Positions 3,003 to 52,457 of a stretch of DNA of 64,000 nt are shown here, one piece after another (position 1 is the first letter of the stretch; each line of letters opens with the position of its first letter). The DNA is taken from positions 48,685-112,684 of the IMG/VR virus record IMGVR_UViG_3300036766_000644. One strand, 5' to 3'. The notes under the pieces were generated by a model. It was given only the letters and a program-made list of their open reading frames with translations. It had not been told where the DNA came from and searched no databases. This DNA is from a virus. The position numbers and the translations under genes were made by a program.

Positions 3003-3452
3003 TCACTCATCCGACGCAACAGGCGCTGTCCGAGAAGAATCGTACGCCTTACCAACCGCCTGCCCAACCGGCGCCAAAAGCATTCCGCCGCCAATCTGTC
3101 CTGCCATTCCGAGAGGGCCTCCTAGCAGAGATCCTGCGGAGCGGCCAAGCAAATCCCCGACGAGCTCTCCACCACCGGTATCAGGATTAGCGCGGGATTG
3201 AAGAAAAGAACCCATGATGGGCCAGGCCAACGCCGCGGCTATTGCACCGGGGCTCCGAGGGAGCGTCTTGGTGATGAGCCCCTTGCTGGGGTGGAAAAGC
3301 TGCCCTTTTTGAAACTGCTTCAGCGCTTCACGCGGCTGTCCGAGCCCTTGGCGCTGTACCTCTTCGAGGTAGTCGTCCCAGCCGCCAGCGCACTTCACAC
3401 CGAAGGAATGCAGAGCCGCACGGACACCTGCGGATTGCGCCAGGGGTAGCAT
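3003..3452 (-). CDS. hypothetical protein, Gly-rich C-terminus (149 aa)
   Basis: ORF whose ATG overlaps the stop of the upstream beta' C-half gene (TGATG). Confidence 0.55.
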   Translation of the reverse strand: MLPLAQSAGVRAALHSFGVKCAGGWDDYLEEVQRQGLGQPREALKQFQKGQLFHPSKGLITKTLPRSPGAIAAALAWPIMGSFLQSRANPDTGGGELVGDLLGRSAGSLLGGPLGMAGQIGGGMLLAPVGQAVGKAYDSSRTAPVASDE

Positions 3453-6286: not shown

Positions 6287-6928
6287 TCAAACGCCCGCTT
6301 GAGGAGTGGTTCCACCGGCGCCTCCTTCGCAGAACATCATCCGGCGTAGATCGTCTGCGTGCTGTTGGTCAGTGAGCGCCATCTGCTCGAGCATCACTTT
6401 GATGGAGAGGTTCTCCCCCGCCATGAGCGATAGGTTACGCAGCTCTTGGATGATCTGCTTCTCAGCCTGAAGCAGGACCATGAAAATCTGGTGGAGGTCG
6501 TTGATGTCCGGGATGGTGCTCACCTTAGGCGTGGGCTCACCACCTAGAGCCGTGATCTTCATCGTGAGGTGGTAGGCGTCTTCACGCTCTTCCCCTGCGT
6601 GCTCCTTGAAGTGGTCGTAGATGACGTCTCGGAAGTGAGCCCGGATCCGGTCACCGTAGTTGATGTACATCATCATCGTGGTGTACTTGAGCTTGAGCAG
6701 CTTCAGGCACTGCGCCACGATCTTTTCCTGAGGGACGGCGAACAGGCCTTCCTCGGGGGAGACGGCCAAGGGATGAACACCCTCAGATGCGGTGGGCTGG
6801 GGGATGGGAACTTCAGCTCCGGCGGCGTCAGACATCTGCGCGTCAGGGGATTGTACTTGCTCCGTAGGAACCTCAATGGCTCCGTCTGACGCGATCTTGT
6901 AGCGCTGCGTGTATACCTTGGTCGTCAC
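6287..6928 (-). CDS. hypothetical protein, possibly ferritin-like four-helix bundle (213 aa)
   Basis: ORF overlapping the beta-beta' stop by 4 nt. Periodic E/H/Q residues (…EHAGEEREDAYH…EKQIIQELRN…LEQMALTDQQHADDLRRM) resemble ferritin or rubrerythrin-like metal ligands. This is a weak call. Confidence 0.55.
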   Translation of the reverse strand: MTTKVYTQRYKIASDGAIEVPTEQVQSPDAQMSDAAGAEVPIPQPTASEGVHPLAVSPEEGLFAVPQEKIVAQCLKLLKLKYTTMMMYINYGDRIRAHFRDVIYDHFKEHAGEEREDAYHLTMKITALGGEPTPKVSTIPDINDLHQIFMVLLQAEKQIIQELRNLSLMAGENLSIKVMLEQMALTDQQHADDLRRMMFCEGGAGGTTPQAGV

Positions 6929-9900
6929 GGGCCCACCTCTACTTTGGTGTTGAGATTTATTTCACCACGCTTGTACGCCGCGTAAGCGTCTGCCTTCGTC
7001 TTGAAGTGGTGCGTTTTGGCGTTGTCCGACCCTACCGCCTTCGTTGCCAAGTGTATCCCTAGCATAGCCTCCATGCGGGGAGCGACCATCAGGCTGTTCT
7101 TCTCTCGGTCGGCGAACAGGAGGTTGGAGAGGGTCAGCCCCTTCACCTCCTGCACAGCGCCTGGGAGGACGGGGACGTGAATCTGGAACGTGTCCCCGTC
7201 GTAGTCGGCGTTCATCCCAAGCTCGATGAAGGGGTTCACCCGAATCGTCTTACCGGCGACAGGGACGGGGTTTGCGCCAACGAAGCCGTAGCGGTGCAGC
7301 GTAGGGGCCCGATTCACCATGACGGGGCGTTCCTTGATCTCCACCATCAAGGCTGTGAGAGCGGCAGGATGCTTCTCCTCTACCATCTCCTTCGAACGAA
7401 CGGCGTTGAACCCCTGGCGCACGAGGCGGGCGATGACGAACTTGCCGTACATCCCCCACAACATGTCGATCGGCAGGCCAATCTCGTCCATGCCCAGAGC
7501 GCCATCGGGAGCGATGGTCCCGCGGCCAGAGACGTCCTGCTGGCGCTTCATGATCTTTTTCTGGAAGAAGCTGCTCTTCGGCGTTGTCTTCCCGGTGATG
7601 TGCTCGAGGAAGCCCTTCACATTGCGCTTCAGGAGCTTCGGGTTGTCCGACTCATGCGTCCCGATGACGGCCCCCACGGCGTTGAACAGATTCTGCCGAA
7701 GCTTGGCGTGTTCATCGGGTGGGAGGATCGGTGACTCAACCTGCCGCTGCAGCGCTTTGTTGTGCAGCATGGCGGCGGCGTAGAGGTAGTTCGCGTCACC
7801 CACGACGAGCTCTGAACCGCCCTTCCCCGCTTGCACTGGGCGCATGATGGGCGGGAGGACCGGGAGCTTGGTCAGCACGTAGGCGTCGCCAGGCTTGAGC
7901 CCCTGCTTGTTCAGCGCGGAGAGAAACTTGAGATGTTTCACCGCGTCGTCCAACTTGACACCACTGCTCTTTTTGATCGATTCTCGAATAGTCTGCATCT
8001 GGCCAGGAACGTCGATGGCGTTCAACTTCTTCTTCACTGCGTCGGCCCCGTGCTGGAACCGGAACAGGTCGAAGTCTTTCGCCGTCATTCCTAGAAGTCG
8101 CCGAGCTGGCTCTGCGAACACAGGGTTTACGACGGACTCGGCCAAGTCGATGTGGCTCCAGCGGGTGCCGTCGGTACCTCCGGTAACCGCCGGGTCGAAC
8201 AACCCACCACGCTCCGCGGCTAGATCTTTGGCGCGGACAAGCTTCTCGTTTTGGATGGCCCCAGAGGACATTCGCATGATGTCCTTGTCCGTGAGAGGCG
8301 ACAGCGTGCTGAGACTCCCTCGAGTGTCCACCTTGACCCCGGCCCCGTGCAGCATGCCGATGAACTTGTCGTAGGCGAACGTCGTCTTCAGCGGAGGCAG
8401 GGGTAGCCCGAGCTGGATGGCCTTCCAGAACTCGTCGTTCTTCTGGCTCTTGATCGCAGCCGTCTCGCGAAGAACGTTGCGGGCGTTGTGCGCTACGAGG
8501 GCGTTGAACTCCATCTTACCGACGGCCTTCGCACCTTCGTCGCCGCCTTTGATGGGCTGCTGATTTACGTCGTACGCCCCAGTACCGCGAGCCGCGAAGT
8601 TGGTCTCGGTGGTCTTGAACAGGCGGAGCACGTACTGCGGCCCGACGAGGATGCCGGGGATCTTCTTGCCCGATACCGGGTCGAACACCGTCTCCTTGTC
8701 CTTGACCCCGTGCTCCTTCATGAGGTCCTTTGTCCACTGCACGTTGTCCCGCCCGGAGAAGTTAGCCACAGCGATCGGTTTACCGATCTTCCTGGCCACT
8801 TTCGCGACACACGTCTCGAGGACTTGAGCCGGGTTGATGCGGGAGATGATGCCTGCGGACGTGTACAGCACGTCCAGGGGTTTACCGCCCTCGTCCTGTA
8901 GCATCTGATGGTCAGGGATGATGCGGGAGACGACGCCCTTGTTTCCGTGGCGTCCCGTGAGCTTGTCGCCTACGCGCATGGGCTCCTTGGTACGCACTGT
9001 GACGAGGACCCGTTTGTCGGTGACGTGAACGTCTGTGACGTCCCCCTCGAAGTCGTGGTCCCAGGTGCGGACGAGCTCACGGTACGGGTTAACGAGCGTC
9101 TTCTTGAAGTTGGCCAGCAGAGTGTCCGACGCGGACAGCTTTCCCTTGGTAACCCCGGCGATCAGGATGTCATGCGGCATGACCTTCATGCCTTTGCGCA
9201 CGACGCCGTTCGCGTCGAGCTTGCGGTACTGGTCCGCGGTGTACTTCGGACCGTAGTACTGGCGGTGCATTTCACGCCCCACGACGGCGTCCCGCTCAAC
9301 CTCCAAAACCTCCTTGTACATGTGCTCCGACGTCAACTTGTCGGCGGCTCCCTCGGAGATGACGACAGCGTCATTCGAGTTCAGCCCGTAGTACGGGATG
9401 TACCCGATGGTCATGTTGCGCCCGAGCGCGAAAGCACCATCGCGGGTGAAGTTGGAATCGGCGAGGCGCTGATTCGCTTCGACGTGATCCCCGGGCTTAA
9501 CGAGGATGTCGTGGTGAAGGTACGTCTTGGATGCGAAGGGAAAGTTGTCCTCGTAGGGTACGCGGATGAGATCTGCTTCGGCTGCGGCCTTCTCGCGCTG
9601 ACGCTCGGAGAGGTAGTCGTCCTGGAACTCGTCCCACGTGTACTCTTCGAGAGACCCAAAGCCCCACTCGGGACCGTGTTTCTGGTACGCCTCCTTCGCA
9701 GCGTCCTTGGAGTCGAAGCCGACCATGCACTTGTCTTCATCGTGCGACCCGTCGCGCTTCTTTTGGCGAACGACGTACACGTGATCGAAGGTACCGTCTT
9801 CCTTCAGGTAGATGTCCACCGTCTCGCCATCATCCCCAACCGTCTTGGGGATGTGCCCGTAGGCGAGAGACATCTTCTTCTCCCACTTCTTGCCCTCAAG

Positions 9901-11736
9901 GGAGACGCCAGAACGAATGTCCCCAGGCTCGAGCTCGAGCTTGAAACACAAGCCCTTGATCGTCTTTTGGCGCTTGACGGCGCCGCCCCTCTTTTCGAAG
10001 GAGTTCTTTTCGAAGACGAAATCCTCGGCGTGCTTCTTCCCGCTTGGGTCGATGTAGATGTACTGCCCGTCGATCCGAACTACCTTCCCCGAAACAGGGG
10101 CGAAAGGAAGCTCCATCAACGCCAGGACCTTCTCCCAGCTCGAGTGCTCCTTACCTTCAGAGTCGCGAATGCCGGATTGAACGAGAGGCGCCTCGCGATG
10201 TACGAGGGGCAGCGCCTGCGTCATGGACTTGCCTCCCATGATGCCGCGGTTCCCCTGCACGGACTCCAAGAAGGGGACAAGGTTTGTCGCCGGGGAGTAG
10301 AGGTGAGAAGCGTCAACGAGGGCGTGCGTGCACGTCGATGCCGGAACCATTTCGACGGTTCCTTTGCGCATCGCAGAGATCATCCCAGACGTCTTCTGGT
10401 TCGGGAACGAGATTACGGCGTTGCCCATCTCCGCCGCGGACAGGAGCGTGTTCTTCCCAGTCTTGAGATCCTTCACCGGGGCGTAGAGGTTGCCGCGCTC
10501 ATCCCTGTGAGCGTACATCGCGGTGCGAATGTCGATGCCCGCTCGGAAAGTCTCCGACGTCCGCACCGGGTCAAGAAGCCCGAAGTGGCTTGAGTGAATC
10601 GTCCGAGCTTCCGCCGGGATTGCCCGCTCATTGGCGATGCCGCCTTCGCCCAGCGAGGTCACGCGAGCTGCGTGGTCGATTGCCTCCATGGGGTTGATGT
10701 GCGTCGGGATCGAGCTCAGCTGAGATCCTGTGAGGAAGCTTCGAATGCCTGCGGAGAACGGAGACGCGGGGAGGATCGTCCGGAGCTCCGTCTTGTGCGT
10801 TGCCCGGCCCTTCACCTTGCTGGCGAGAGCTCGTGCATCCAGGGTGATGCGCTCTTTGATGAAGTCGTCAACGGAGTGGTACGTCTTGAACCGAAGAGCG
10901 TCGCGGTCGTCGGTGTCCTCATTGTTCTTGTAGACGTTGAGGAGGCGCTTCGAAGCAGTCAGCAGGGCGAGGGGCGTCACCGACGCGAACTCGTGCCCGA
11001 GTGTTTCTTTAGTCACCCCAGGGTCCATCGCTGTCGTCGAGTACGCCGCTTTCACAGCCTCCAGCTGTGTCTCAGGGTTCGTCGCCGTTCGCTTGGCAGG
11101 ATGGACCAGTTTCTCGTAAAGCTTGGCGAGGTGTTTGTCGTGCTTTCCGTCGAATTCCGCCTCATTCTTTCCCGCGACATCAGAGCCCCACGCCGTAGCG
11201 ATCTCCCCGTGAGCCGTACCGAGCTTACGGAGTACTGAGTAAAGAGGAATCGCGGTGGTCCCGTACTCGATGTACGGGTGACCCTTTGTAGGGTCCATGG
11301 ACAAGCGGAAGTTCATGCCCTTCGACAAGTTGAAGGCTGCCTCGAGCTCTTCGTTTCCGCGACGCCGAGTGTACACACCTGGCTTGAGGCGCAGCTGGTT
11401 CGAGACGTTGTACTCGTTGCCGTCCAGGATGAAGGTGTGGCGCCCTGTGAAGTAGGGGAGGTTCAGCAGCGTGAAGTTCTTGACCTTCTCGAGCTCCTTG
11501 CCCGCTGCGTCACGAAGGACGACGGTGCCTTTGACCTGCTCGAACAAGGAGCCGCCGCTGAGCAGGGCGTTCTTCTGATCCTTCGGACCGAAGTCTTTCT
11601 CGTGAACCTTTAGATCTGTGAGCTCGATACGCTTATCGCGTAGCGCCAAGGGGAAAGCCGTCTTGAGCGCCTCCAGCGCCTTCGCCCGAATGTTGGTTCG
11701 GCGAGACTCCGGGTCTGTCATCACAGGGGTCAGCAT
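6925..11736 (-). CDS. fused RNA polymerase beta + beta' N-terminal (catalytic) half, 1603 aa
   Basis: Beta hallmarks GRHGNKGVVSRIIP and GKMEFNALVAHNA (cf. GEMEVWALEAYGAA). Beta' hallmarks follow in the same frame: VLPPIMRPV, NRAPTLHRYGFVGANPV and the NADYDGD Mg-binding loop (cf. NADFDGD). Highly diverged from cellular enzymes. Confidence 0.9.
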   Translation of the reverse strand: MLTPVMTDPESRRTNIRAKALEALKTAFPLALRDKRIELTDLKVHEKDFGPKDQKNALLSGGSLFEQVKGTVVLRDAAGKELEKVKNFTLLNLPYFTGRHTFILDGNEYNVSNQLRLKPGVYTRRRGNEELEAAFNLSKGMNFRLSMDPTKGHPYIEYGTTAIPLYSVLRKLGTAHGEIATAWGSDVAGKNEAEFDGKHDKHLAKLYEKLVHPAKRTATNPETQLEAVKAAYSTTAMDPGVTKETLGHEFASVTPLALLTASKRLLNVYKNNEDTDDRDALRFKTYHSVDDFIKERITLDARALASKVKGRATHKTELRTILPASPFSAGIRSFLTGSQLSSIPTHINPMEAIDHAARVTSLGEGGIANERAIPAEARTIHSSHFGLLDPVRTSETFRAGIDIRTAMYAHRDERGNLYAPVKDLKTGKNTLLSAAEMGNAVISFPNQKTSGMISAMRKGTVEMVPASTCTHALVDASHLYSPATNLVPFLESVQGNRGIMGGKSMTQALPLVHREAPLVQSGIRDSEGKEHSSWEKVLALMELPFAPVSGKVVRIDGQYIYIDPSGKKHAEDFVFEKNSFEKRGGAVKRQKTIKGLCFKLELEPGDIRSGVSLEGKKWEKKMSLAYGHIPKTVGDDGETVDIYLKEDGTFDHVYVVRQKKRDGSHDEDKCMVGFDSKDAAKEAYQKHGPEWGFGSLEEYTWDEFQDDYLSERQREKAAAEADLIRVPYEDNFPFASKTYLHHDILVKPGDHVEANQRLADSNFTRDGAFALGRNMTIGYIPYYGLNSNDAVVISEGAADKLTSEHMYKEVLEVERDAVVGREMHRQYYGPKYTADQYRKLDANGVVRKGMKVMPHDILIAGVTKGKLSASDTLLANFKKTLVNPYRELVRTWDHDFEGDVTDVHVTDKRVLVTVRTKEPMRVGDKLTGRHGNKGVVSRIIPDHQMLQDEGGKPLDVLYTSAGIISRINPAQVLETCVAKVARKIGKPIAVANFSGRDNVQWTKDLMKEHGVKDKETVFDPVSGKKIPGILVGPQYVLRLFKTTETNFAARGTGAYDVNQQPIKGGDEGAKAVGKMEFNALVAHNARNVLRETAAIKSQKNDEFWKAIQLGLPLPPLKTTFAYDKFIGMLHGAGVKVDTRGSLSTLSPLTDKDIMRMSSGAIQNEKLVRAKDLAAERGGLFDPAVTGGTDGTRWSHIDLAESVVNPVFAEPARRLLGMTAKDFDLFRFQHGADAVKKKLNAIDVPGQMQTIRESIKKSSGVKLDDAVKHLKFLSALNKQGLKPGDAYVLTKLPVLPPIMRPVQAGKGGSELVVGDANYLYAAAMLHNKALQRQVESPILPPDEHAKLRQNLFNAVGAVIGTHESDNPKLLKRNVKGFLEHITGKTTPKSSFFQKKIMKRQQDVSGRGTIAPDGALGMDEIGLPIDMLWGMYGKFVIARLVRQGFNAVRSKEMVEEKHPAALTALMVEIKERPVMVNRAPTLHRYGFVGANPVPVAGKTIRVNPFIELGMNADYDGDTFQIHVPVLPGAVQEVKGLTLSNLLFADREKNSLMVAPRMEAMLGIHLATKAVGSDNAKTHHFKTKADAYAAYKRGEINLNTKVEVGP

Positions 11737-11819
11737 GTCCGTAAGTATAGCTCCCTTTTTGGTATCAGTAGCTGAGTCCCCACTTAGGGCTCAACTCGCA
11801 GTATCACCGGAGGGTGAAC

Positions 11820-15389: not shown

Positions 15390-15435
15390 GTGCTATACTT
15401 AGCTTAACCTAACAGGAAAAACAAACGGAGCGTTC

Positions 15436-26948: not shown

Positions 26949-27420
26949 CGGGCGCACGGTCATTCAGACGTACGAGGCGAAACTGTTCCCGGAACACCTG
27001 GAAACGGCGGAGCCCAGGGCATTGGAGGTCAACAAGTACTCCGCTGCTGAATGGCCCCGCGACAAGTGCGCTCGACCCGAAGACGTAGTGGACGCCCTGC
27101 AGAAGATGTCAGGCAACACCGTGCTGGTGGGGCAGAACGTGTCGTTCGACGAGGGCTTTCTTTCGCCTCTGTTCACCCGCCTGGGGATGAAGCCACCCTG
27201 GGGCTACCACAAGATCGACACGGTCTCGCTGGCCTGGCCGCTGTACTTCAACAACGCCGAGCTCCCCGGGCTGAGCCTGGAGAAGCTGTGTAAGTTCCTC
27301 GGAGTAGAGTCGATGCCGACGCACCGGGCAGCCGCTGACGTTGAGGCGTGCCGTCAGGTGTACCTGAATCTGATGGAACGATGGGCGATCATTACCAACA
27401 ACCAGATCGCGCAGCCGTAA
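26836..27420 (+). CDS. DnaQ-like DEDDh 3'-5' exonuclease (194 aa)
   Basis: Exo I FVDTETTGLD. Exo II VGQNVSFDEGFL. Exo III HRAAADVEAC. Confidence 0.85.
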   Translation: MAPIKKLQDLLFVDTETTGLDSTKHELLEVAAIRTSPDGRTVIQTYEAKLFPEHLETAEPRALEVNKYSAAEWPRDKCARPEDVVDALQKMSGNTVLVGQNVSFDEGFLSPLFTRLGMKPPWGYHKIDTVSLAWPLYFNNAELPGLSLEKLCKFLGVESMPTHRAAADVEACRQVYLNLMERWAIITNNQIAQP

Positions 27421-28290
27421 GTTAGTTGGTCGCGAGATCTTGCATCGGAGAATATCCGACGCCTCTGTAGCAGAGGCCGTGTACTTCGGAGATTTTGAAG
27501 CCTAGCTTCTGCAGCAGCAGTAGGTCTGCCCGAGTACACCCAGATGTCTCATGAACTGTTCGGTTGCACGCACCACCAGGGTGCTGCCACATACGACACA
27601 GACAAAGAAGAATCGCGACAGTCACGCAGTAAAAGATCTTGCTCCGGTACCTTTCCGGCGCCTCCGTAGTGGAGGCACTACCCCCGGGTCTCCTCACAGC
27701 CTAGCTGTATCGAAGACCAGGAGGTCTTAGCGACGATCGTAGCCGCGGGTGTTGCCCGCAGCTCCTCGAGGGCCCCAGTCGCCGAGCTGCTCGAACTGAT
27801 TGAACAAAGAAGATCTTGCTGTAAACTTTCCTGCTCCGGTACCAGTCCGGCGTCTCCGTAGTGGAGACTTTTACACGGCGGTGTCTGCGCGAAGCCTAGC
27901 TTCGCTGGACACCCAGGGTCCAAGACATTACCGGATCCTCCCGCGGCGTCGAGCTCGAGTACCGTACCTCGGGTCTCCGGCGGCCGCTAGTACGATTGAA
28001 CAAAGAGGAAAGATCACGTAGTCCGTAAATTCTTGCACCGGTACCTACCCGGCGTCTCCGTAGTGGAGACATTGAGGCCGTGGGTGTATGAGAGCCTAGC
28101 TCTTGCACACCCAGGAGGTTTCTTACCGCGGCGCCAATGATGGCGTCGTCTCGAACTCCTTCGGCCCCTTGATGACCTGCAGCTCTTCGAGATGGAAAAC
28201 AAAGAAGAATTTACGCAGTACCGTAGTGGTGATTCGTTTTGTGTGCCTAGGCACCGTCAGCGTAGTGCTGACTAGATCTCTTAGCTGCCC
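27421..28290. repeat. tandem array of ~4.5 units of ~200 nt, candidate structured ncRNA genes. Units start near 27421 (truncated), 27602, 27803, 27999 and 28198.
   Basis: Each unit shares AACAAAGA(A/G)GA, AGATC, CTTGC.CCGGTACC, CCGGCG(C/T)CTCCGTAGTGGAG(G/A)C, GCCTAGC, CACCC(A/C)GG and TCGAACT. No ORF is consistent across units. Two hairpins show compensatory changes between units. Confidence 0.8.
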
Positions 28291-28295
28291 CGCGA

Positions 28296-28374
28296 GATAG
28301 TTCCCGGGGGGCGGAGGAACTATCATCCAAGGAGTCACCACGTGTGCGAGAAGTCCGGCCTGGAGAGGCCGGAC
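28296..28374 (+). promoter_or_regulatory. two perfect hairpins upstream of gene 28397 (GATAGTTCC…GGAACTATC and GTCCGGCC-tggaga-GGCCGGAC), flanked by duplicated AGGAGTCACCA(C/T)G sequences
   Basis: Inverted repeats read directly. The second AGGAGTCACC serves as the RBS of ATG 28397. Could be a terminator for the repeat array or a translational attenuator. Confidence 0.4.
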
Positions 28375-28396
28375 ACCCCGCCACTCAGGAGTCACC

Positions 28397-28582
28397 ATGA
28401 AGATCGTGTCATTCGTCGTACGTCTCCACTGCGAACACTGCGATGGGACGGGGAGGATTCCCGGAGGTCAACGCGAGTACGGGGAGATGGTGTCGTGCCT
28501 CTACTGTAAAGGGTACGGGACCGTCGCAGGGGATGTATCGTTCGAAGACTTCGCCAAGCTCATCCAAGGGATCGCCAAGTGA
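28397..28582 (+). CDS. zinc-ribbon small protein (61 aa; CEHCDG…CLYCKG)
   Basis: AGGAG lies 6 nt before the ATG. Two CxxC pairs. Confidence 0.55.
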   Translation: MKIVSFVVRLHCEHCDGTGRIPGGQREYGEMVSCLYCKGYGTVAGDVSFEDFAKLIQGIAK

Positions 28583-28800: not shown

Positions 28801-30414
28801 CTACGCGTAGAACTTGAGATCGTTCATCACGATCTTGTGGGCGAACCATCCGAAGAGCTGCGCGTGGAGGCAGTCGTCGGGGAGCTGGGGGCTGTGCCTC
28901 CATACCTTCTTGCCAGACGTCGTCACCTCCTCGTAGATGTTGAGGATGTCCTTGATGGCCTCGCGAGACTCTTCGCGTGGCGGGTACACGGCTGCGCCAC
29001 GCTTCAGGAACATGAGGTAGTTGTCGATGAGAGTCGTACGGTCAGCGAGATAGCGGTCCAGCCCGTTCCACTTGATGGGCTGAGCCAGAGCTCCGTACTG
29101 CACCATTGTCACCCGGTGAGCGCCCAGGCGGGCACGGAGGGTGGCGTTCGGTAGGGCGCCCTCACCAGCGTCTCCGATGACCATGGCGACGTTGTAGCTC
29201 AGGCAGATGCGGGCGATGTCTTCCACGTCCACAACGGCGTTGTTGCCAGGGTAGACGCGGTAGTAGAGCGTGCGGAGCTTCTGCGTGCTGGGGTGGAAGC
29301 CCCAGATCCACAGCACGGTGCGAGAGGTTCCGGTGGTCCCACCACCAGACCAGTCAACACCTGCAACCGTGACTGAACACCCATCCAGGTTCTTGTTCGG
29401 CGTCGGTGAGATTGCGTCGCCTGTGCATAGCGCCTCGAGCTCCTCCAGGGAGATGAGGCGACGCCCTACGGCGTCTGAGACACCGAGGACCTCGTTGCGG
29501 AATCTCGCAGACGAGAACATGTCGTGGTCGCGAAGGATGTCGTCCCAGCGTGCTTGAGCATCCGCTTGGGCGTTTGGCTTCTCCACGGTATTTTTTACGC
29601 AGGACGGGATGTTCAGGGGCATGATCAACTGCGGGATGTGGAACCCCTTCACGGAGTGCTTCCCCGTGTCTTTGTCCACCTTCTGCATGTCGATCCACTG
29701 CCCTGTACGGGGGTTCAGGACGTGGCCACAGTTGAGGCAGATGGGCCCGTGCTTCCCCAGCGACTTCTCGCTCGTGACGATGTTGTACTTGCTGCAGCCC
29801 TCACACTTCATCACCCACTCTGTCTGAGACGACTTGTCCCAGAGGTACTGGATGCTGGCCTCCATCGTCTTGGGCGTGCCCGCGTAGGTCTCGAAGCGGA
29901 ACTCGCTGTTCTTCATGCAGGAATTGATGACCGGGACAACTGAGTCGTACAACATGTCCTGAAACTCGTCGTAGCTCACCCGATCGGCGGAGAAGCCACG
30001 GGCGCGGTCTGCGTCGTCGCAGGCGTAGGTGAAGGCGTTCTCCGAGCCGTTGGTGTAGGATCGGTGCAGCACGCGGTCGGCGTGCTCAGGAGACTGGAAG
30101 TACTTTTTGATGATGGGCGAGTAGGAGAGCGTCTTCCCTACGCGAGTGTTAGAGAAGATCAGCGTTTGTTCTTTTGATGGAGATACGTAGTACTCCTTGA
30201 AGTGTGGCAGGGCCACGCTCTCAGAGATGATGAAGTTGGCCAGTGACGTAGACTTGGCCACCTGTCTCCCGCACATCAGGAGAGTGGACTTGTAGCGCCC
30301 GTTGTAGATGTTCCGGTACATCGGGTAGTCGTCGAGGCTGAACTTGGACCCATCCAGCCAGAGCAACCGCTCAGCGATGTCCGAGAGCTTCTTTGTTTTG
30401 ATCGTCTGTTCCAT
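28801..30414 (-). CDS. terL: terminase large subunit (537 aa)
   Basis: Walker A LMCGRQVAKST. Walker B VSYDEFQDM. C-terminal nuclease region VAGVDWSGGG…IGDAGEG. Confidence 0.9.
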   Translation of the reverse strand: MEQTIKTKKLSDIAERLLWLDGSKFSLDDYPMYRNIYNGRYKSTLLMCGRQVAKSTSLANFIISESVALPHFKEYYVSPSKEQTLIFSNTRVGKTLSYSPIIKKYFQSPEHADRVLHRSYTNGSENAFTYACDDADRARGFSADRVSYDEFQDMLYDSVVPVINSCMKNSEFRFETYAGTPKTMEASIQYLWDKSSQTEWVMKCEGCSKYNIVTSEKSLGKHGPICLNCGHVLNPRTGQWIDMQKVDKDTGKHSVKGFHIPQLIMPLNIPSCVKNTVEKPNAQADAQARWDDILRDHDMFSSARFRNEVLGVSDAVGRRLISLEELEALCTGDAISPTPNKNLDGCSVTVAGVDWSGGGTTGTSRTVLWIWGFHPSTQKLRTLYYRVYPGNNAVVDVEDIARICLSYNVAMVIGDAGEGALPNATLRARLGAHRVTMVQYGALAQPIKWNGLDRYLADRTTLIDNYLMFLKRGAAVYPPREESREAIKDILNIYEEVTTSGKKVWRHSPQLPDDCLHAQLFGWFAHKIVMNDLKFYA

Positions 30415-30869
30415 CAGGAGCTCAAAGATAATTGAAGGTTGTGCAGGCTTAACTCAATGGCCCTAGTGAGTAGAGCCTTTAAAATACCAGGGTCTTCGTG
30501 TGCGTGGCCAAAAGCGCGGTTACAACCACCGTGAGCTAAGCCGCGCACAACATTTGTTTTATGGCAGTGATCGACAACGGGGAGCTCAAACATAGGACGT
30601 TCACACAACCAGCACCGCCCCGCCTGAGCGATCAACATCGAGTGCCAGCGCGCCGTAGTTATCCCATAAAGACGCTTAAGATTTCTTTCCAGCGCCTTGG
30701 CGGGATCTTGAGCGTAATAAGAAGATTTGCGCCCCCGTATGCGTTCAGGGTGCCGCCTACGATACGCAGCATTGCGCCGCCTGTTGCCAGCAACATCCGC
30801 TTTCCTGCAAAGGCGGCAAGGGCCTGACGGCATGCGGTCCACAGATCCACACTTTTTGCAGGGATTCAT
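30414..30869 (-). CDS. HNH endonuclease (endonuclease VII-like) immediately upstream of terL (~152 aa)
   Basis: CKKCG…CRLC plus CWLCERP…VDHCHKTNVVRGLAHGGCN. Start taken at MNPCKKC, because the longer track ORF would overlap the divergent AAA+ gene start. Confidence 0.8.
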   Translation of the reverse strand: MNPCKKCGSVDRMPSGPCRLCRKADVAGNRRRNAAYRRRHPERIRGRKSSYYAQDPAKALERNLKRLYGITTARWHSMLIAQAGRCWLCERPMFELPVVDHCHKTNVVRGLAHGGCNRAFGHAHEDPGILKALLTRAIELSLHNLQLSLSS

Positions 30870-30894: not shown

Positions 30895-32172
30895 ATGAGT
30901 AACGTCGGGCAGGACAAGGTAATCGCAGGTGAAGCGTACTACGACCGCTACAGCATCCCGCGGATGACTCTGCACGAAGCAATGTGGCAGATCGACCTCA
31001 GCATCGAGCAGAAGCAGACTCGAGGAGTCTGGTGCCTCATCTCGGAAGCGGGCGAGGGGAAGTCGCAAGGCATTCACCAGCTTGCCCGCAAGCACAACCT
31101 ACGGGTCGTGGACATCCGGACGTCGCAGTTCTCCATGATCGGAGCCGGTGTTCCGCAGCGAGCTGATGAGTCTGGGCACTTCAAAATCGCCATTCCATCA
31201 GACTACCCGAAAAAGGGAGAGAGGTGCATCCTCATCTTCGACGAAATCAACCAGGGGCAGCAGCACGCCATCGCGCTGTTCTTCAAGTTCCTCGAGGACC
31301 GTGGGATCTACGACTACGTCCTCCCGGATGACTGCGTCATCGTGGCGCTGATGAACCCCAGCACTGCGGGGTACAACGTCACGAAGATCGAGACCAACTC
31401 CGCGTTCAACCGCCGCCTGATGAAGGCGTACGTGTACAACACGTTCTCGGACTGGAAGAAGCACGCGGTGACGAACGACTTCCACTACACCGATGGGATG
31501 GAGAAGCCCTGCCACCCGATGGTCGTGCGCCTGCTCACGGCGTCTCCGTCGATGCTGTACACGGCGAAGGACCGCGACGGGAACAAGCAGTTCGCGTGCC
31601 CTGCGACCTGGCAGACCGTCTCGCTGTCGCTCTACAACCTCGAGGCCTCGAAGACTGACCTCACCTCAGAGCGGGCGGAGTGGCGAATCTCAGCGTCCAT
31701 CAACACGGTGAACGCGAAGACCCTCGTGGAGTTCATCAAGAACAACGAGATCATCATCTCCCCGGAGGAGGTGCTCTACAAGTACAAGGCGAAGAGCAAG
31801 CTCCGCGAGCGCACCCAGGACCTGCAGAAGGAGCCTGGCGGGGAGTACACCCGTCTCGTGGAAGAGGTCGCCCAGTTCATGTTCCGCGAGCGTCCCGACC
31901 CGGAGCTCATCGCACCGCAGCTGGTGCAGTTCTGGCACGACATGCCTGTCGAGCAGGCGCAGCCGTTCTACCAGATGCTCGACTCGGCCTGCACGGCGCA
32001 CGGGGGCATCAGCGAGCCGAGGAACCTCCAGTACATGCAGGCGCTGACCGTGGCTTGCCGCGGCTACCCTCTGTGGAAGGAGATCAACGACCGCATCAAC
32101 CGCATCCACGACGAGCAGGAGAAGAAGGTTCACGGCCGCGGTAAGGGCAGTGATCCGATGGAAGTTGCGTGA
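30895..32172 (+). CDS. MoxR-like AAA+ ATPase (~425 aa)
   Basis: Walker A GEAGEGKS. Walker B CILIFDEINQ. Sensor region ALMNPS. Start at ATG 30895. The track's 30727 start overlaps the opposite-strand HNH gene. Confidence 0.85.
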   Translation: MSNVGQDKVIAGEAYYDRYSIPRMTLHEAMWQIDLSIEQKQTRGVWCLISEAGEGKSQGIHQLARKHNLRVVDIRTSQFSMIGAGVPQRADESGHFKIAIPSDYPKKGERCILIFDEINQGQQHAIALFFKFLEDRGIYDYVLPDDCVIVALMNPSTAGYNVTKIETNSAFNRRLMKAYVYNTFSDWKKHAVTNDFHYTDGMEKPCHPMVVRLLTASPSMLYTAKDRDGNKQFACPATWQTVSLSLYNLEASKTDLTSERAEWRISASINTVNAKTLVEFIKNNEIIISPEEVLYKYKAKSKLRERTQDLQKEPGGEYTRLVEEVAQFMFRERPDPELIAPQLVQFWHDMPVEQAQPFYQMLDSACTAHGGISEPRNLQYMQALTVACRGYPLWKEINDRINRIHDEQEKKVHGRGKGSDPMEVA

Positions 32173-32373
32173 AGCTGAACGCACGGGGACGGCGTATCTA
32201 CGATATCCCCATCATGTTCACCGACGGAACTCCGGACACCGTGCTGGAGATGGAAGGTCCGAATCTCCCAAGGTGGTTGATCCACGAGAAGCGCCACTAC
32301 GTGCTCATGGCGCTGAACATCTACACCCCGACGACGGCGAAGTTGCGCGGGACTAATGCGGAGCTTCGGAAGA

Positions 32374-33105
32374 TCAGCCCAGGAGGGCAGTTATTTGACT
32401 CCTCAACTGACTGGTCTTCCCCGCCACGTGCACCCAAGAAGTAGCGAGCTTGGCCAGCTGCGCTCCCAAGGGGGAGTCCTCGAACCTGTGGTGTTCGAGC
32501 TTCTCCTTGTGGAGCGCGGCCCAGGCCTTCTCGGTTTCATCTTTTAGGGTCAGGGCTTCCTTGCTGACCTTGGCCTGGAGCTCTTCGTTGGCAAAGCCAA
32601 GACCCGACGGCGTGGTGGCGAACCCCTCATCCCAGAGGGAGACCGCCACGTAGGCCTCGATGCAGGGGTCGAACTCGGGGACGCTGTTGCCGGTGTCCGT
32701 CAGAGCGTAGATGAGCTCGGCTTCGAAGCAGGCCCAGGCCATCTGTCCTGCGTCGCACTTGGGAACGGACTCGGGGATGACCATCTCGTTGGTGAAGGCG
32801 TGCGCTGTTGCGCCGAAGACGCGGTAGTCCCAGTAGAAGCTCGGGGTCATCGCCAGCGCGATGGCGGCCATCAGCTTGTCGCGGTTGGCTAGGCAGGGGT
32901 CCAGCTCGAGCCACAGCGTCTCAGGCTCGTATGCGAGGAACGTGGGCCCCAGCAGGTAGTGCGCCGCGATGAGCACGGACGTCGCAGTTGCCTGAGGATC
33001 CTGCATCACCGTCTTGGCGTGGGCCTTCTGTGCGTTGCTCGGGGCCTTGAAGTAGGCCGCGTACGCTTCCTTGACGACGGTGCGCTGGAGGTCGGAGAGG
33101 GTCAT
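32374..33105 (-). CDS. hypothetical protein (243 aa)
   Basis: Minus ORF with protein-like composition. No competing long plus-strand ORF. Confidence 0.65.
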   Translation of the reverse strand: MTLSDLQRTVVKEAYAAYFKAPSNAQKAHAKTVMQDPQATATSVLIAAHYLLGPTFLAYEPETLWLELDPCLANRDKLMAAIALAMTPSFYWDYRVFGATAHAFTNEMVIPESVPKCDAGQMAWACFEAELIYALTDTGNSVPEFDPCIEAYVAVSLWDEGFATTPSGLGFANEELQAKVSKEALTLKDETEKAWAALHKEKLEHHRFEDSPLGAQLAKLATSWVHVAGKTSQLRSQITALLG

Positions 33106-33108
33106 TTG

Positions 33109-34098
33109 TTAGCGACAGTGGGCCTTCAGCTGAAGCTTCAGATCGAGGGGAAGCGTGTCCACAACAGTCGCCAGCTTTGACTGGTCGACGACTCCGCCGG
33201 GGGCGATTTCGTCTCCAAGCTCCTTGCCGCCCAGATCTTCCCAGAAAGACGCAGGCAGCTGAGCGAGTTTCGCGACTGAGATGAAGGTGCCGCCGAGGTC
33301 GACTGACTTGGAGGCCAGTTTTTCTGTGTTGAACATCGTGCGGAGGGGGTCGGGGAGCTTGCGGTCATAGTGGCGATCGAGGCCGCTCCGCTCGTCTAGC
33401 TCCGCGATGGCAGCAGCTACCTTGAGCAGGCCCTTCCGGTCGGAGAGCTCTTCCGGGCCCTTCCGCAGTTGGTTGGCGAGGACCTCGTAGGCGCCCTTGT
33501 AGATGTCCCCATCGGGGCGCTGACCCGCTCGAGCGTCGAGCCACTGGGCGGCGATCTTGGTGCTGGAGACCACCAGGCCTGCGAGCTGTAGAACTTCGGG
33601 ACGGAGCTCAACGCCGAGATCGTCTGCCTTCTTCACCAGGTTGGCGCAGGCGATAGCACGGTTCTCCAGGTCCAGCTTGGAGATGGCCGCGACCAGGTCG
33701 TCCTGGGCGCGCTTGCACTGGGCAGCCGTCTTCACCATGAAGAGACGGTGCTCCGGGATGAGGAAGTCGTTCTCGTCGGAGGCGACCTTCACCTCTTGCT
33801 CCGCGAAGGTGGACTCGGGTACGTCGTAGGCCTCGAGGGCTTGGACGAGGTTCGCGGTGACTTCCTTGGGAAGCGCGCTGGCGACCTTGCTGTAGGCGTA
33901 GCTGAGGGCTGCGTGCTCAGGAGTGTGGATCGGGTACTTGCGCTCAGCGGGCCACGCGAAGGCGGTGTCGGGGAGGGACGCTACGTCATCCTGCTCCACT
34001 TCGGCCTGCTTCACGAAAGCCTCGAGGGCGGGCATCCTGGATACCTGGCGCGCCAGGGTACCAAAAGCAGGGTCGCTGAATTGATCGACAATCGACAT
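33109..34098 (-). CDS. hypothetical protein (~329 aa)
   Basis: GAGGTGG lies 4 nt before ATG at 34096-34098 (minus). The track extends it to 34152. Confidence 0.65.
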   Translation of the reverse strand: MSIVDQFSDPAFGTLARQVSRMPALEAFVKQAEVEQDDVASLPDTAFAWPAERKYPIHTPEHAALSYAYSKVASALPKEVTANLVQALEAYDVPESTFAEQEVKVASDENDFLIPEHRLFMVKTAAQCKRAQDDLVAAISKLDLENRAIACANLVKKADDLGVELRPEVLQLAGLVVSSTKIAAQWLDARAGQRPDGDIYKGAYEVLANQLRKGPEELSDRKGLLKVAAAIAELDERSGLDRHYDRKLPDPLRTMFNTEKLASKSVDLGGTFISVAKLAQLPASFWEDLGGKELGDEIAPGGVVDQSKLATVVDTLPLDLKLQLKAHCR

Positions 34099-34145
34099 TT
34101 TTCCACCTCGAAAGAGGGTTAACCCAAGAAGTATAGGAGGCTTGA

Positions 34146-35771
34146 ATGGCAACTACCACTACCACAGGCGACGAGAACGAACTGCAGAAGTCGCTGGTTT
34201 ACCTCGTGAGTCGCAGAGGTGCCTCGAATTACTGGTGCACCGTCGTGAACGGGATGGACAAGCGTTTCACCAATGGCGACGGGACTCTGTCGGTCCAGCT
34301 GGCGCCGAACTTCAGGTACCTGCTCACCGTCCACCTGCCCTTCTTCGAGAAGTGCTCCCCGACGATGAAGCGGCTCGCGTTGGTGCACGAGGCAGCGCAT
34401 GTCTGCCTGAACCACATCCCCCGGCTGTTCAAGATGGTGGCGAACTGCACGGATCCCTTCGTACGCAAGGCCATCCTGGCGACGTTCAACTTCGCCGCGG
34501 ACTTCGCAGCGAATGACGCCATCGTACGACTCGAGCCGGGATTCGAGGAGACGCACCGCAAGATGGGCACGGCGACCGGCGAGTTCCCGTTCCTGCTGCC
34601 CGAGGAGTTCGGGTTCCCGAAGGGGCTCTCGATGGAGGAGTACTTCACGCTGATGCTGAAGGACCTCCCCAAGATCAAGCAACAGATCCAGCGCATGCTC
34701 CAGGATTTGATGGAGCAGATGGAAGGCGGGGATACGCCCGGAGAAGGAGACGGCGAGGGTGAAGGTGACGGTGAAGGTGGAGGCTCCGGGGGTGGAGACG
34801 TTCTGCGTTCTCCGTTCGGGCGTGGGCGCGGCTCTGGCCTGCCGAACAACATCCCGGGGTTGCCTGAGTCTCTGATCGAGCACGCCATCAACGAGCCTGA
34901 GACCTTCGACATGCTGCAGAAGGCCTTCGACAAGATGACGGGTAAGGGCCACCGCCAGTGGAACGAGAAGGCGGAGCAGATGACCCCCGAGGAGGCAGTC
35001 TCAGCGGGCAACAAGATGAAGAAGCACGCCCAGGCGCTGGCGCGTTCAGCGAATGAGCGCATCAACCGTGACCGCGGCTTCATGGCGGGGTCGGTTCAGA
35101 GGATCATCGACGCACTGCTCGAGCCGGAGCAGATTCCCTGGGACTCGTTCCTGCGGGACATCATCCAGGGCGCCATCTCGGCCCGGGTGCAGGAGGAGAT
35201 GGGCGCGCCAAACCTGGCGCTCATCAACGAGGACTACATGGAGCCCTGGCCCGGCCAGATGCTGGAGTTCGGGTTCAACATCACCTGGATGACGGACACC
35301 TCGGGATCGATGGGGGACGCGGAGTACGTACGTGCCTGTGCGTGCATCAACTCGCTGCTCGCTCAGAACAAGGCGGTGTTCGTGACGTACTGCGAGTGCG
35401 ACGCCGCGATGCAGAAGGAGGTCCGCGTCACCAACGTGGAGCCGCCTTCTGATGAGTACGTGAAGGAGCTCCTGAACCGCCGTGGGCACGGAGGCACCGT
35501 CTACACGCCGTTCTTTAAGCGTGTCGCCGGGGCTGACGTTCCCTCGGATTGGGTGGCCGGTGCGCCCAAGCTCGATGAGAAGCACCCGAAGCCGGACCTC
35601 ATGGTCGTCTGTACCGATGGTGGTGTGGGGCTGATGGGTGAGTGCTTCCCGCAGTTCCGCCCTGACTGCCCCATCATCTGGCTGGTGATGCCGGGGTGTT
35701 CACCCTGCGAGGGGATGGACAATGTGTCACCGAATCGCGTGATCGAGATGTTCTCAATGAAGGAGGAATAA
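34146..35771 (+). CDS. vWA-domain protein with N-terminal HExxH metallopeptidase-like (DUF2201-like) domain (541 aa)
   Basis: HEAAHVCLNH in the N-terminal domain. MIDAS motif DTSGSMGD followed by …VVCTDGG. Typical partner of MoxR-type ATPases. Confidence 0.85.
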   Translation: MATTTTTGDENELQKSLVYLVSRRGASNYWCTVVNGMDKRFTNGDGTLSVQLAPNFRYLLTVHLPFFEKCSPTMKRLALVHEAAHVCLNHIPRLFKMVANCTDPFVRKAILATFNFAADFAANDAIVRLEPGFEETHRKMGTATGEFPFLLPEEFGFPKGLSMEEYFTLMLKDLPKIKQQIQRMLQDLMEQMEGGDTPGEGDGEGEGDGEGGGSGGGDVLRSPFGRGRGSGLPNNIPGLPESLIEHAINEPETFDMLQKAFDKMTGKGHRQWNEKAEQMTPEEAVSAGNKMKKHAQALARSANERINRDRGFMAGSVQRIIDALLEPEQIPWDSFLRDIIQGAISARVQEEMGAPNLALINEDYMEPWPGQMLEFGFNITWMTDTSGSMGDAEYVRACACINSLLAQNKAVFVTYCECDAAMQKEVRVTNVEPPSDEYVKELLNRRGHGGTVYTPFFKRVAGADVPSDWVAGAPKLDEKHPKPDLMVVCTDGGVGLMGECFPQFRPDCPIIWLVMPGCSPCEGMDNVSPNRVIEMFSMKEE

Positions 35772-36046
35772 TGCCGACACCAACAAAAAAAGAAGACATC
35801 ACCATCAAGCACTACAACACGGACCTCGCGGGGAATACCAAGTACTCCGAGGAGACGAAGAAGAACCGCTGCGTGTACCGCCGCAAGGACGGGACGGAGT
35901 ACGTGCACGACGGCGAGCTGATGCGGGCGGATGACGGATCAGGGTACGTCGAGAAGCGCTCCAAGCAGGTGCAGGCGCTGAACATCATGGACATCATCAA
36001 GAAGGTCAAGGAGACGGGCGGACAGATCGTCATTCTGCCTCCGTAA
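35772..36046 (+). CDS. hypothetical basic protein (91 aa)
   Basis: GGAGG upstream. TAATG junction with the vWA gene. Confidence 0.5.
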
Positions 36047-36056
36047 GAAAGCCCCC

Positions 36057-36329
36057 ATGAACGTCACGATGAAGCGAATGATCCGCGACATCGTGCAACT
36101 ACGAAGGAAGGCCGGGCTCACACAACAACAGGTCGCTGACCTGGCGAATGAGCCTTGCCGTACCTTCATCGCGCACCTCGAACAAGGGAGGCGGGAACGC
36201 CTCAACCTCGAGAAGCTGTACGCAACGTTGCACGTGCTGTTCACCATCACCAAGAAGAAGAAGAGGTCTCATGGATCTGTACTGTCTCCGCGTAAAACGC
36301 GAAGCCGCTGGAAAACTCTTTCCCTTTGA
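36057..36329 (+). CDS. XRE-type HTH transcriptional regulator (90 aa), paralog of the N-terminal domain of gene 60436
   Basis: LRRKAGLTQQQVADLANEPCRTFIAHLEQGRRE looks like an HTH. About 55% identical to LRKATGVTQQEVSAMAGEPCRTFLAHFEQGRK in gene 60436. Confidence 0.7.
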   Translation: MNVTMKRMIRDIVQLRRKAGLTQQQVADLANEPCRTFIAHLEQGRRERLNLEKLYATLHVLFTITKKKKRSHGSVLSPRKTRSRWKTLSL

Positions 36330-45869: not shown

Positions 45870-46271
45870 TTACGGAATGGCGATGGGGCCTGTGACGCCG
45901 ACGAAGGCGGTCGCAGTGATGTCATACTCTTTACAGAGAGACGTCATGCGTGAGATCAGAGTTGACGCAAAGTCCTGTGCGAGCGCCACCGATGCGAAAT
46001 CTTTGGTCACAGAGGACAGCCGGTAGTACGGGAGATTGGCCCCCTGCGCCGCGAGCAGCGAGTTGGGGTAGGTCTGTACGTCCAAGACGGTCGCTACATG
46101 ATCGAAGAGTCCGTCCGCGACTTTGAAGACGAACACGGAGGCCGCGGCGGGGCTCTCAGGGAAACCCGTCGAAGAGTTGACAACATCCACGACGCGGTAG
46201 GGCGCCGCTACGGATAGCGCCGGGGGAACTGATGCTGTCCGGGTCTGCGTGTGGTTGAGCGTGGCTGCCAT
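45870..46271 (-). CDS. hypothetical protein (133 aa)
   Basis: Minus-strand ORF immediately upstream of 44760..45857. Confidence 0.55.
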   Translation of the reverse strand: MAATLNHTQTRTASVPPALSVAAPYRVVDVVNSSTGFPESPAAASVFVFKVADGLFDHVATVLDVQTYPNSLLAAQGANLPYYRLSSVTKDFASVALAQDFASTLISRMTSLCKEYDITATAFVGVTGPIAIP

Positions 46272-46315
46272 AGTGGCCCAAGTATAGCTGAAATCTGAAT
46301 CTCGAGGGGAGAGGG

Positions 46316-48454: not shown

Positions 48455-48732
48455 GCGCCACCCCTGGACCCTGGTTCTGGAACGAAGAACGTTGGCTGGT
48501 CGAGACGTTGGATGGGGATCGCGTGTTCAAGGCGTTCGACCCGTACGATGATGTGGATCGAGAGCCCATCGCGAAGGACATGCGTCTTGCCGCCGCCGCG
48601 CCGGAACTGCTGAAAGCGTTGGTGGCGTTGCTGCGGGAAAGCGACGGCGTTGATTGTCGTATCGGCGACCGCTCGGGGAAGGCGGTACGTAGGGCACACG
48701 CAGCAATCAAGAAAGCAAAGGGGATCAAATGA
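48451..48732 (+). CDS. hypothetical protein (93 aa)
   Basis: GTGA-coupled. Confidence 0.5.
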   Translation: MSATPGPWFWNEERWLVETLDGDRVFKAFDPYDDVDREPIAKDMRLAAAAPELLKALVALLRESDGVDCRIGDRSGKAVRRAHAAIKKAKGIK

Positions 48733-52373: not shown

Positions 52374-52457
52374 TGGGACGTGGTAGTTACCGCGACCCCG
52401 CGACGGCTGACACCGTCCACGAACCTCTATACTTCTCAACCTCTGCCATCCCAGGCG

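Follow-up and report, generated by a model that had tools for sequence, protein, structure and literature searches.

The window analysed here comprises the 64,000 nucleotides at positions 48,685 to 112,684 of the IMG/VR virus record IMGVR_UViG_3300036766_000644, a stretch of a large uncultured phage genome of ~189 kb with a G+C content of ~0.60. Its central part encodes a MoxR-class AAA+ ATPase and a protein in which a zincin-like domain precedes a vWA domain; both genes lie on the plus strand and are separated by two genes of the opposite strand. An independent gene call from the public Logan assembly gave products of 425, 243, 329, 541, 91, 90, 210, 84, 398 and 423 aa, the same as the open reading frames (ORFs) of the window. 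The features needed for the argument, to which the genes downstream are added below, are the following:

28801-30414 (-): TerL, terminase large subunit; PHROG 675 at 9e-45 and Pfam GpA_ATPase at 8e-9
30895-32172 (+): MoxR-class (CbbQ/NorQ-like, AAA_5) AAA+ ATPase of 425 aa, assigned from PHROG 1297, homologue profiles and predicted fold
32374-33105 (-): m243, a conserved protein of 243 aa with 53 homologues; second gene of the antisense pair
33109-34098 (-): protein of 329 aa (m347), mostly helical, with 362 homologues of ~330 aa; first gene of the antisense pair
34129-34136 (-): promoter-like box CTATACTT, in a 47-bp gap, 31 nt before the ATG of the 329-aa gene
34146-35771 (+): DUF2201 protein of 541 aa (the vWA protein); Pfam DUF2201 and DUF2201_N, PHROG 1314

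Domain assignment of the ATPase and the vWA protein

The ATPase matched PHROG 1297 ('ATPase') at 8e-38. A preliminary description of this DNA had read in it a Walker B motif LIFDEIN, which was borne out, and a Walker A motif GEAGEGKS, of which the correct reading is SEAGEGKS. The Walker A and Walker B motifs of a MoxR-class ATPase were accordingly both present, and residues G53, G55, K56, D116, E117, N154, R173 and R174, covering Walker A, Walker B, the sensor-1 Asn and an Arg pair, were invariant across 20 homologues. Domain AAA_5 was detected in 17 of the 20 (best 1.2e-8) and AAA_3 in four, and one JGI homologue carries the name 'MoxR-like ATPase'. When the AlphaFold2 model (pLDDT 82) was searched with Foldseek, the best compact matches were CbbQ2, described as 'a MoxR AAA+-ATPase' (6l1q_A, E 7e-8, TMt 0.62), and NorQ from NorQ-NorD vWA complexes (9qh8/9qh4, TMt 0.60-0.62). 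Dynein AAA2-4 was also matched (E 3e-8), and other AAA+ clades (clamp loaders, FtsH, RuvB) gave TMt values of 0.32-0.46.

The DUF2201 protein is composed of an N-terminal zincin-like HExxH domain (HEAAH at residues 81-85), a Gly/Asp/Glu-rich linker and a C-terminal vWA domain with a complete metal ion-dependent adhesion site (MIDAS; DTSGSMGD at residues 384-391). Among 15 relatives sharing 26-78% identity, H81, E82 and H85 were invariant, as were N115, A117, D119 and N123 downstream of the HExxH motif and the MIDAS residues D384, S386, S388, T451 and D491. Pfam DUF2201 (VWA-like, PF09967) was matched with 30.8 bits, above its cut-off of 26.4 (E 3.5e-7), and DUF2201_N (PF13203) fell below its gathering score for the window copy (20.0 bits against 23.2, E 5.6e-4); both domains were matched by all 15 relatives, with best values of 3e-19 for DUF2201_N and 5e-15 for DUF2201. 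The protein also matched PHROG 1314 at 3e-28, a tblastn search with it retrieved the AR9 'zincin-like protease fused to vWA domain', and its family profile weakly matched, around the MIDAS, the I-domain of integrin alpha-X (E 0.004). The N-terminal metallopeptidase-like domain and the MIDAS-bearing vWA domain of the preliminary description are therefore borne out by profiles and invariant residues. That description had let its domain assignments stand or fall with profile searches, and those of the ATPase and of the vWA protein both survived profile and fold tests.

It could be argued that the motifs are chance matches in two unrelated ORFs and that no MoxR/vWA system exists at this locus. The window ATPase had no Pfam match at E <= 0.1, and the DUF2201_N score of the window copy mentioned above points the same way. 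This reading is nonetheless already refuted and its probability is close to nil: the family profiles were found in 17 of 20 and 15 of 15 homologues, the catalytic and MIDAS residues are invariant at 22-45% identity, the PHROG matches range from 1e-28 to 1e-38, and the ATPase model has a fold match to CbbQ/NorQ.

Conserved layout and the antisense pair

The comparison with related genomes proposed in the preliminary description was carried out as synteny searches anchored on the ATPase, the vWA protein and the reverse transcriptase (RT) encoded downstream. These covered ~40 IMG/VR contigs of up to 194 kb, with 25 ATPase-anchored and 34 RT-anchored loci and 26 dereplicated lineages, and the layout was fixed throughout. 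Every contig extending far enough showed the same order and orientation, namely family A DNA polymerase (PolA, +), further genes, TerL (-), ATPase (+), m243 (-), the 329-aa protein (-), the vWA protein (+), p211 (+) and RT (+), with a Cys-rich protein usually next. This order held down to identities of 22-45% for the ATPase, 25-30% for the vWA protein, 30-38% for the RT and 47-59% for TerL. In the window the vWA gene starts 1974 nt downstream of the ATPase gene, and the two share the same strand in all relatives. In most relatives the start codons of TerL and the ATPase lie back-to-back, 10-50 bp apart, and the stop codons of the ATPase and m243 genes are separated by 3-15 nt.

The presence of two minus-strand genes of 243 and 329 aa between the ATPase and vWA genes was thereby confirmed. 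The accompanying statement that such genes are normally adjacent is no rule in phages: two small genes lie between them in phage RG-2014 and three small genes in PA5oct, and they are adjacent in AR9. Since the same order was found in ~40 contigs at deep divergence, the split is ancestral and clade-wide and does not represent an interruption. In this ancestral arrangement two units of opposite orientation are interleaved: the plus-strand unit contains the ATPase gene followed by the genes of the vWA protein, p211, RT and the Cys-rich protein, and the minus-strand unit contains TerL and the 329-aa/243-aa pair.

Covariation of evolutionary rates was assessed in the dereplicated lineages for six proteins of the block, giving 15 pairs. 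In a branch-based test, for which branch lengths were fitted on one topology and residuals were taken against the other proteins, ATPase-vWA ranked highest of the 15 pairs (rho 0.39, p 0.011, a value that fails correction for 15 comparisons; rho 0.37 in a second taxon set), and the pair of TerL and the 329-aa protein came next (0.33). The ATPase and the vWA protein are very likely partners: the block contains no other such pair, every member of the clade has retained both, and their branch-wise covariation is the highest. Together they form a vertically inherited core module of the clade.

The two proteins encoded between them are orphans. None of the 53 homologues of m243 is named; the protein has no Pfam domain and its family profile has no match in PDB. 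The ~330-aa length of the homologues of the 329-aa protein supports the M19 start of the latter, and an exhaustive profile search assigned 2127 representative clusters at 50% identity to this family, none of which supplied a name. Its AlphaFold2 model (pLDDT 77) is mostly helical and found no fold match in PDB with Foldseek; a BFVD search with the same model returned two uncharacterised viral proteins. Apart from a weak DUF6582 motif in the 329-aa protein, neither protein obtained a Pfam, PHROG, NCBIfam or PADLOC assignment, and PDB profiles and PHROG scans of distant homologues returned nothing informative. In Salmonella phage Arash, profiles of both families matched neighbouring genes, which keep the order and share one strand (gp242 for the 329-aa protein, E 2e-4; gp243 for m243, E 2e-7), and no homologue of the ATPase, the vWA protein or the RT was found in the 78 of 181 kb of the Arash genome examined.

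The box CTATACTT in front of the 329-aa gene has five exact copies in the window:

11743-11750 (-), 15393-15400 (+), 34129-34136 (-), 46280-46287 (-) and 52427-52434 (+): exact copies of CTATACTT

All five are non-coding, in a window of which 12% is non-coding and in which ~0.7 copies are expected in total. Each points toward a gene start 7-84 nt away, the targets being the gene of a 1603-aa protein, two helicase genes, the gene at 46271 and the 329-aa gene. A TAnnnT box (TATACT, TATAAT and variants) occurs at the same place and in the same orientation in 15 of 15 divergent relatives. The motif may possibly represent a promoter of this phage clade, used by its own RNA polymerase or sigma factor. 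A function of the copy in the 47-bp gap as promoter of the vWA gene was considered and rejected: all other exact copies are read as CTATACTT toward the adjacent gene, and therefore the copy at 34129 would serve the 329-aa gene. A sigma-70 scan gave no more sites than were obtained in shuffled sequence. A second candidate, the 12-mer ACCCAAGAAGTA found at 32432 and 34122, was attributed to chance, since hundreds of exact 12-mer repeats are expected in 64 kb; the observed count of such repeats was reached in four of 100 shuffles. The 329-aa/243-aa pair is thus, on the strength of its predicted promoter, regarded as an independently promoted unit nested antisense between the chaperone genes. Its own promoter-like box and the occurrence of the Arash pair in a region devoid of ATPase and vWA genes place it outside the chaperone module.

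These neighbours bear on another explanation, in which the ATPase and the vWA protein act as a virion-morphogenesis chaperone and processing protease whose clients would be proteins of packaging or of the head, such as TerL or the two sandwiched proteins. Iyer et al. (PMC7824862) proposed such a role for jumbo phages, by analogy with Acidianus two-tailed virus, whose tail does not develop without its MoxR-vWA pair. It would also agree with the position of the genes, which border on TerL and on a pair whose counterpart gp242 in Arash bears the label 'structural protein', and with an 'ESI-MS/MS' note borne by the PA5oct ATPase record. The label of gp242 is weak evidence, because it stems from a particle proteome in which 116 of 252 proteins were flagged, ribonucleotide reductases and other metabolic enzymes among them (PMC10585845). 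The AR9 pair, in turn, is located behind an annotated early promoter, and N4-like phages carry the pair in their early/middle DNA-metabolism region. In the window the pair is opposite in strand to TerL, the 329-aa protein and m243, with which its rates do not covary in the branch-based test (ATPase-TerL -0.37, ATPase-m243 -0.53, vWA-329-aa protein -0.40). A dedication to virion assembly was consequently judged rather unlikely, and a client outside the virion is preferred below.

The reverse transcriptase cluster and its genome setting

As stated in the preliminary description, the vWA gene is positionally the first of a run of plus-strand genes ending with the RT, the Cys-rich protein and a terminator. 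The seven genes of the run are tightly packed, with gaps of at most 10 nt or overlaps. Those following the vWA gene, with the terminator, are:

35771-36046 (+): ORF of 91 aa, variable accessory gene, translationally coupled to the vWA gene (TAATG); found otherwise only in the closest relatives L004 and L005
36057-36329 (+): XRE-type helix-turn-helix (HTH) protein of 90 aa, variable accessory gene; PHROG repressor/regulator families at ~1e-4 to 1e-5
36271-36903 (+): p211, 210 aa, C-terminus rich in Cys; immediate upstream neighbour of the RT in the whole clade
36903-37157 (+): ORF of 84 aa called in the Logan assembly, genome-specific insert; relatives have the RT directly after p211
37160-38356 (+): retron-type RT of 398 aa; Pfam RVT_1 at 6e-15, PADLOC RT_XIII at 5e-44
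38353-39624 (+): Cys-rich protein of 423 aa, last gene of the cluster; its start overlaps the RT stop (ATGA)
39623-39665 (+): hairpin of 19 pairs (11 GC) with a T-run behind it, resembling an intrinsic terminator; closes the plus-strand cluster

The genes at 35771-36046, 36057-36329 and 36903-37157 are variable inserts. The HTH protein, whose Pfam HTH_31 and HTH_3 scores were below the cut-off and whose gene overlaps the p211 start by 59 nt, was not found in the relatives. The p211 protein had a tblastn match in 25 of 35 loci, in each of which it was flanked by the vWA and RT genes, and in four lineages (L010, L012, L022 and L024) no space is left between the vWA stop and the p211 start, which abut or overlap. 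Homologues of the Cys-rich protein, 21-44% identical, were recognised in 18 of 35 loci and in each case followed the RT. No match was obtained for p211 or the Cys-rich protein in the Pfam, PHROG, PADLOC and NCBIfam libraries, nor for the latter in PDB. The hairpin at 39623-39665 is the dominant element of the folded downstream region; no other strong terminator of the plus strand was found from 28 to 41 kb.

Throughout the clade (RT genes of L004-L065) the RT belongs to the core genes and is inherited vertically. Against PDB, its clade profile matched retron RTs at 5e-25 to 5e-14, with Ec67 (5e-25) and Ec86 (2e-22) among them, and group II RTs at 1e-7; NCBIfam retron models were matched far below their own cut-offs. 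Invariant in the clade are the YADD motif and, in an insertion between conserved RT motifs, H116, C120, C123, H136 and C138, which probably form a zinc site. There is no space beside the RT for an msr-msd RNA, genes abutting on both sides, and no Rfam family was detected in the window, although such an RNA inside coding sequence is possible; no known retron effector was matched by PADLOC among the neighbours. A reading of the cluster as a diversity-generating retroelement (DGR) was rejected, as no template/variable (TR/VR) repeats were present and the RT is of the retron type: repeats longer than 37 nt were absent from 30-42 kb, and the only repeats found window-wide, at 27.6-28.1 kb, are not A-biased. 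For lack of an adjacent msr-msd space, an Rfam match, a known effector and DGR repeats, the cluster was filed neither as a retron nor as a DGR.

The possible tie between the chaperone-like pair and this cluster, put forward in the preliminary description, was upheld as to position, vWA, p211 and RT genes being contiguous, and found no robust support in the rates. In its strict form it would mean that the pair is dedicated to the RT module and assembles, activates or processes a complex of RT, p211 and Cys-rich protein, the seven genes forming one system. Several observations are consistent with this: the vWA, p211 and RT genes are contiguous and co-directional in all of ~35 loci, the vWA gene abuts or overlaps that of p211 in the four lineages named above, and the single strong terminator comes only after the last gene. 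Bacterial MoxR-vWA couples joined to RT-based (DGR) systems also exist (PMC7159879). In the distance-matrix version of the rate test, ATPase-RT (0.43), vWA-RT (0.41) and ATPase-vWA (0.39) gave the top partial correlations, but this version counts deep splits many times, and in the branch-based test vWA-RT (-0.15) and ATPase-RT (-0.19) did not depart from the baseline expected for six proteins. Contiguity itself is unspecific: synteny extends equally over all 16 kb of the block that runs from PolA to RT, and adjacency to the RT therefore adds little information. Moreover, the same kind of pair is found in RG-2014, PA5oct and AR9 with no RT within 6-9 kb, and the bacterial precedent concerns DGR RTs with TR/VR repeats, of which none exist here, where the RT is of the retron type. 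An exclusive dedication to the RT module was therefore considered unlikely.

A wider conjecture, of still lower probability, can be attached to this tie. The ATPase and the zincin-vWA protein could constitute the loading or maturation machinery of a vertically inherited retron-like RT complex (RT with its putative zinc insertion, p211 and the Cys-rich protein) serving phage replication, packaging or counter-defence rather than forming a mobile defence island. One long transcript might cover the plus-strand genes from the ATPase, or from a point further upstream, to the terminator at 39665, with the minus-strand genes nested antisense inside.

Beyond this block, the window encodes the family A DNA polymerase, an RNase T-type exonuclease, helicases, a primase, ParB and a ribonucleotide reductase. 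Its m243 protein is identical to one on a JGI contig of 188,569 bp, and the clade consists of uncultured phages of ~170-195 kb with their own multisubunit RNA polymerase pieces. No DNA-level similarity was detected when positions 28-42 kb were compared by megablast with 50,697 phage records, and the nearest cultured TerL proteins were those of Salmonella phage Arash and of the Vibrio phage D181 group (~29% identity). A search of bacterial genomes for host clues gave just three remote, unrelated matches, and the window contains no tRNAs or Rfam families.

Two further coding features flank the ATPase gene:

30417-30869 (-): Endonuclease VII-type HNH gene; Pfam Endonuclease_7 at 1.2e-14, above the cut-off
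32169-32444 (+): possible ORF of 91 aa after the ATPase gene, overlapping the m243 gene at its 3' end; also a gene call in the Logan assembly, GC3 signal present

The HNH gene sits exactly between the TerL and ATPase genes, occupying the 480-bp gap that separates them in the window; its stop overlaps the TerL start and its codon-position GC signal is weak. The insert is missing in most relatives, a similar one being present in L007, and it is probably a free-standing homing endonuclease. The ORF at 32169-32444 had no tblastn match in any relative; it is uncertain and specific to the genome of the window.

Two other regions deserve mention. At 6925-11736 (-), the 1603-aa protein contains regions related to RNA polymerase beta subunits, and its residues ~585-720 match PHROGs labelled minor head protein, virion structural protein, endolysin and DarB-like antirestriction. 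The same mixed-label PHROGs are matched by a neighbour of 599 aa at 3452-5251 (-), which suggests that the two proteins may belong to a split or virion-delivered multisubunit-type RNA polymerase. At 27420-28400, between the gene of the RNase T-type exonuclease and two small genes converging on TerL, ~1 kb has no called genes and carries three direct repeats ~195 nt apart (cores at ~27626-27677, 27818-27870 and 28020-28071). On the minus strand each repeat can be read as two short hairpins, GTCTCC-ACTAC-GGAGAC and GCCGG-nnnGGTA-CCGG, in which the copies show compensatory changes. The array is kept at the same position in close relatives, with 68-71% identity over 600-745 nt and 90-98% in the cores. 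The 27.4-28.4 kb region had no match in Rfam and the differences between its copies are not A-biased; it could be an origin/iteron array, a small-RNA array or a regulatory array.

Proposed mechanism, possible clients and comparison with known systems

Taken together, the data are best explained by a two-part ATPase/DUF2201 machine that is a core module of the clade and is interleaved with a separate antisense pair, an explanation held with moderate confidence. In this machine the ATPase is a MoxR-class AAA+ protein closest to CbbQ/NorQ that would form a ring. By analogy with NorQ-NorD and CbbQ-CbbO, the vWA domain would dock a client through its MIDAS, the ring would remodel this client using ATP, and the zincin domain might then cut it. 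A phage non-structural complex encoded on the same strand is the preferred guess for the client, because of the early/DNA-metabolism context of the pair in other phages, the strand shared with PolA, the exonuclease and the RT, and the rate pattern. The set of RT, p211 and Cys-rich protein is one candidate.

Several points weigh against this explanation. Besides the rate signal of the partners, which does not withstand correction, the class assignment of the ATPase rests on homologues and predicted fold, the window copy having no Pfam match. No promoter was identified for the ATPase or the vWA gene, and no experiment on any DUF2201 phage protein was found in the literature. The temporal class and the client are deduced from gene position only; the two genes flank TerL and a protein with an Arash homologue labelled structural, and Iyer et al. 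(PMC7824862) favour a role in virion assembly for the phage MoxR/vWA pair.

It is worth noting that the pair, TerL, two orphan proteins and a retron-type RT keep their order and strand over very deep divergence, which leaves a handful of candidate clients. If the link with the RT is true, a reverse transcriptase that depends on a chaperone would belong to the core functions of a lytic phage. Otherwise, the locus remains an example, in an uncultured phage clade, of oppositely transcribed units in a conserved interleaved order, together with a putative promoter motif.

Pairs of this kind have been reported before. A MoxR AAA+ ATPase with a metallopeptidase-fused vWA cochaperone was described by Iyer et al. 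in 2021 in group 2.2 jumbo phages (PMC7824862). The pair of the window resembles those of jumbo phages, AR9, N4-like phages and PA5oct in its PHROG families (1297 and 1314), its Pfam domains (AAA_5 with DUF2201_N/DUF2201) and its HExxH-plus-MIDAS architecture, and the clade profiles matched the AR9, PA5oct and RG-2014 proteins at 1e-15 to 1e-31. The known pairs likewise occur in large lytic phages, often a few genes apart. They are formed by g028/g029 behind the early promoter in AR9, lie among RNA polymerase and nucleotide-metabolism genes in the N4-like Delftia phage RG-2014, and are located near RNase H in jumbo phage PA5oct. However, sequence identity with these pairs is just 22-27%. The intervening genes are larger here, on the opposite strand, conserved in the clade and equipped with a predicted promoter box of their own; the ATPase gene is back-to-back with TerL, and a retron-type RT module follows the vWA gene.

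The NorQ-NorD and CbbQ-CbbO systems follow the same logic, an ATPase ring with a MIDAS-bearing vWA adaptor, to remodel nitric oxide reductase or Rubisco. Identity with NorQ/CbbQ is, however, only 10-12%, and the phage ATPase has an extra helical C-terminal half of ~200 aa. NorD and CbbO have no zincin domain, and their clients are certainly different from those of the phage pair.

In 2020 Kaur et al. (PMC7159879) reported bacterial ternary conflict systems in which a vWA-MoxR couple is joined to a DGR reverse transcriptase; with the present locus they share a MoxR-vWA couple encoded beside an RT. Those systems involve DGR-type RTs, template/variable repeats and FGS-domain targets in cellular genomes, whereas here such repeats are missing, the RT is of the retron type and the locus is a core part of a lytic phage genome. 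Retron type XIII (Mestre et al. 2020, PMC7736814), the nearest PADLOC model, has an RT of the same sequence class, and the Cys-rich neighbour in the phage recalls its SWIM-finger partner. In contrast to retrons, no adjacent non-coding space is available for an msr-msd RNA, the neighbours fit no retron effector model, and the RT is vertically inherited in a phage clade with an extra invariant His/Cys insertion. The phage MoxR/zincin-vWA pair is thus of a kind already known, of which the clade provides a divergent member in a strictly conserved layout. This layout is distinct: an ATPase gene back-to-back with TerL, a pair interleaved with an antisense unit, and then a retron-type RT cluster.

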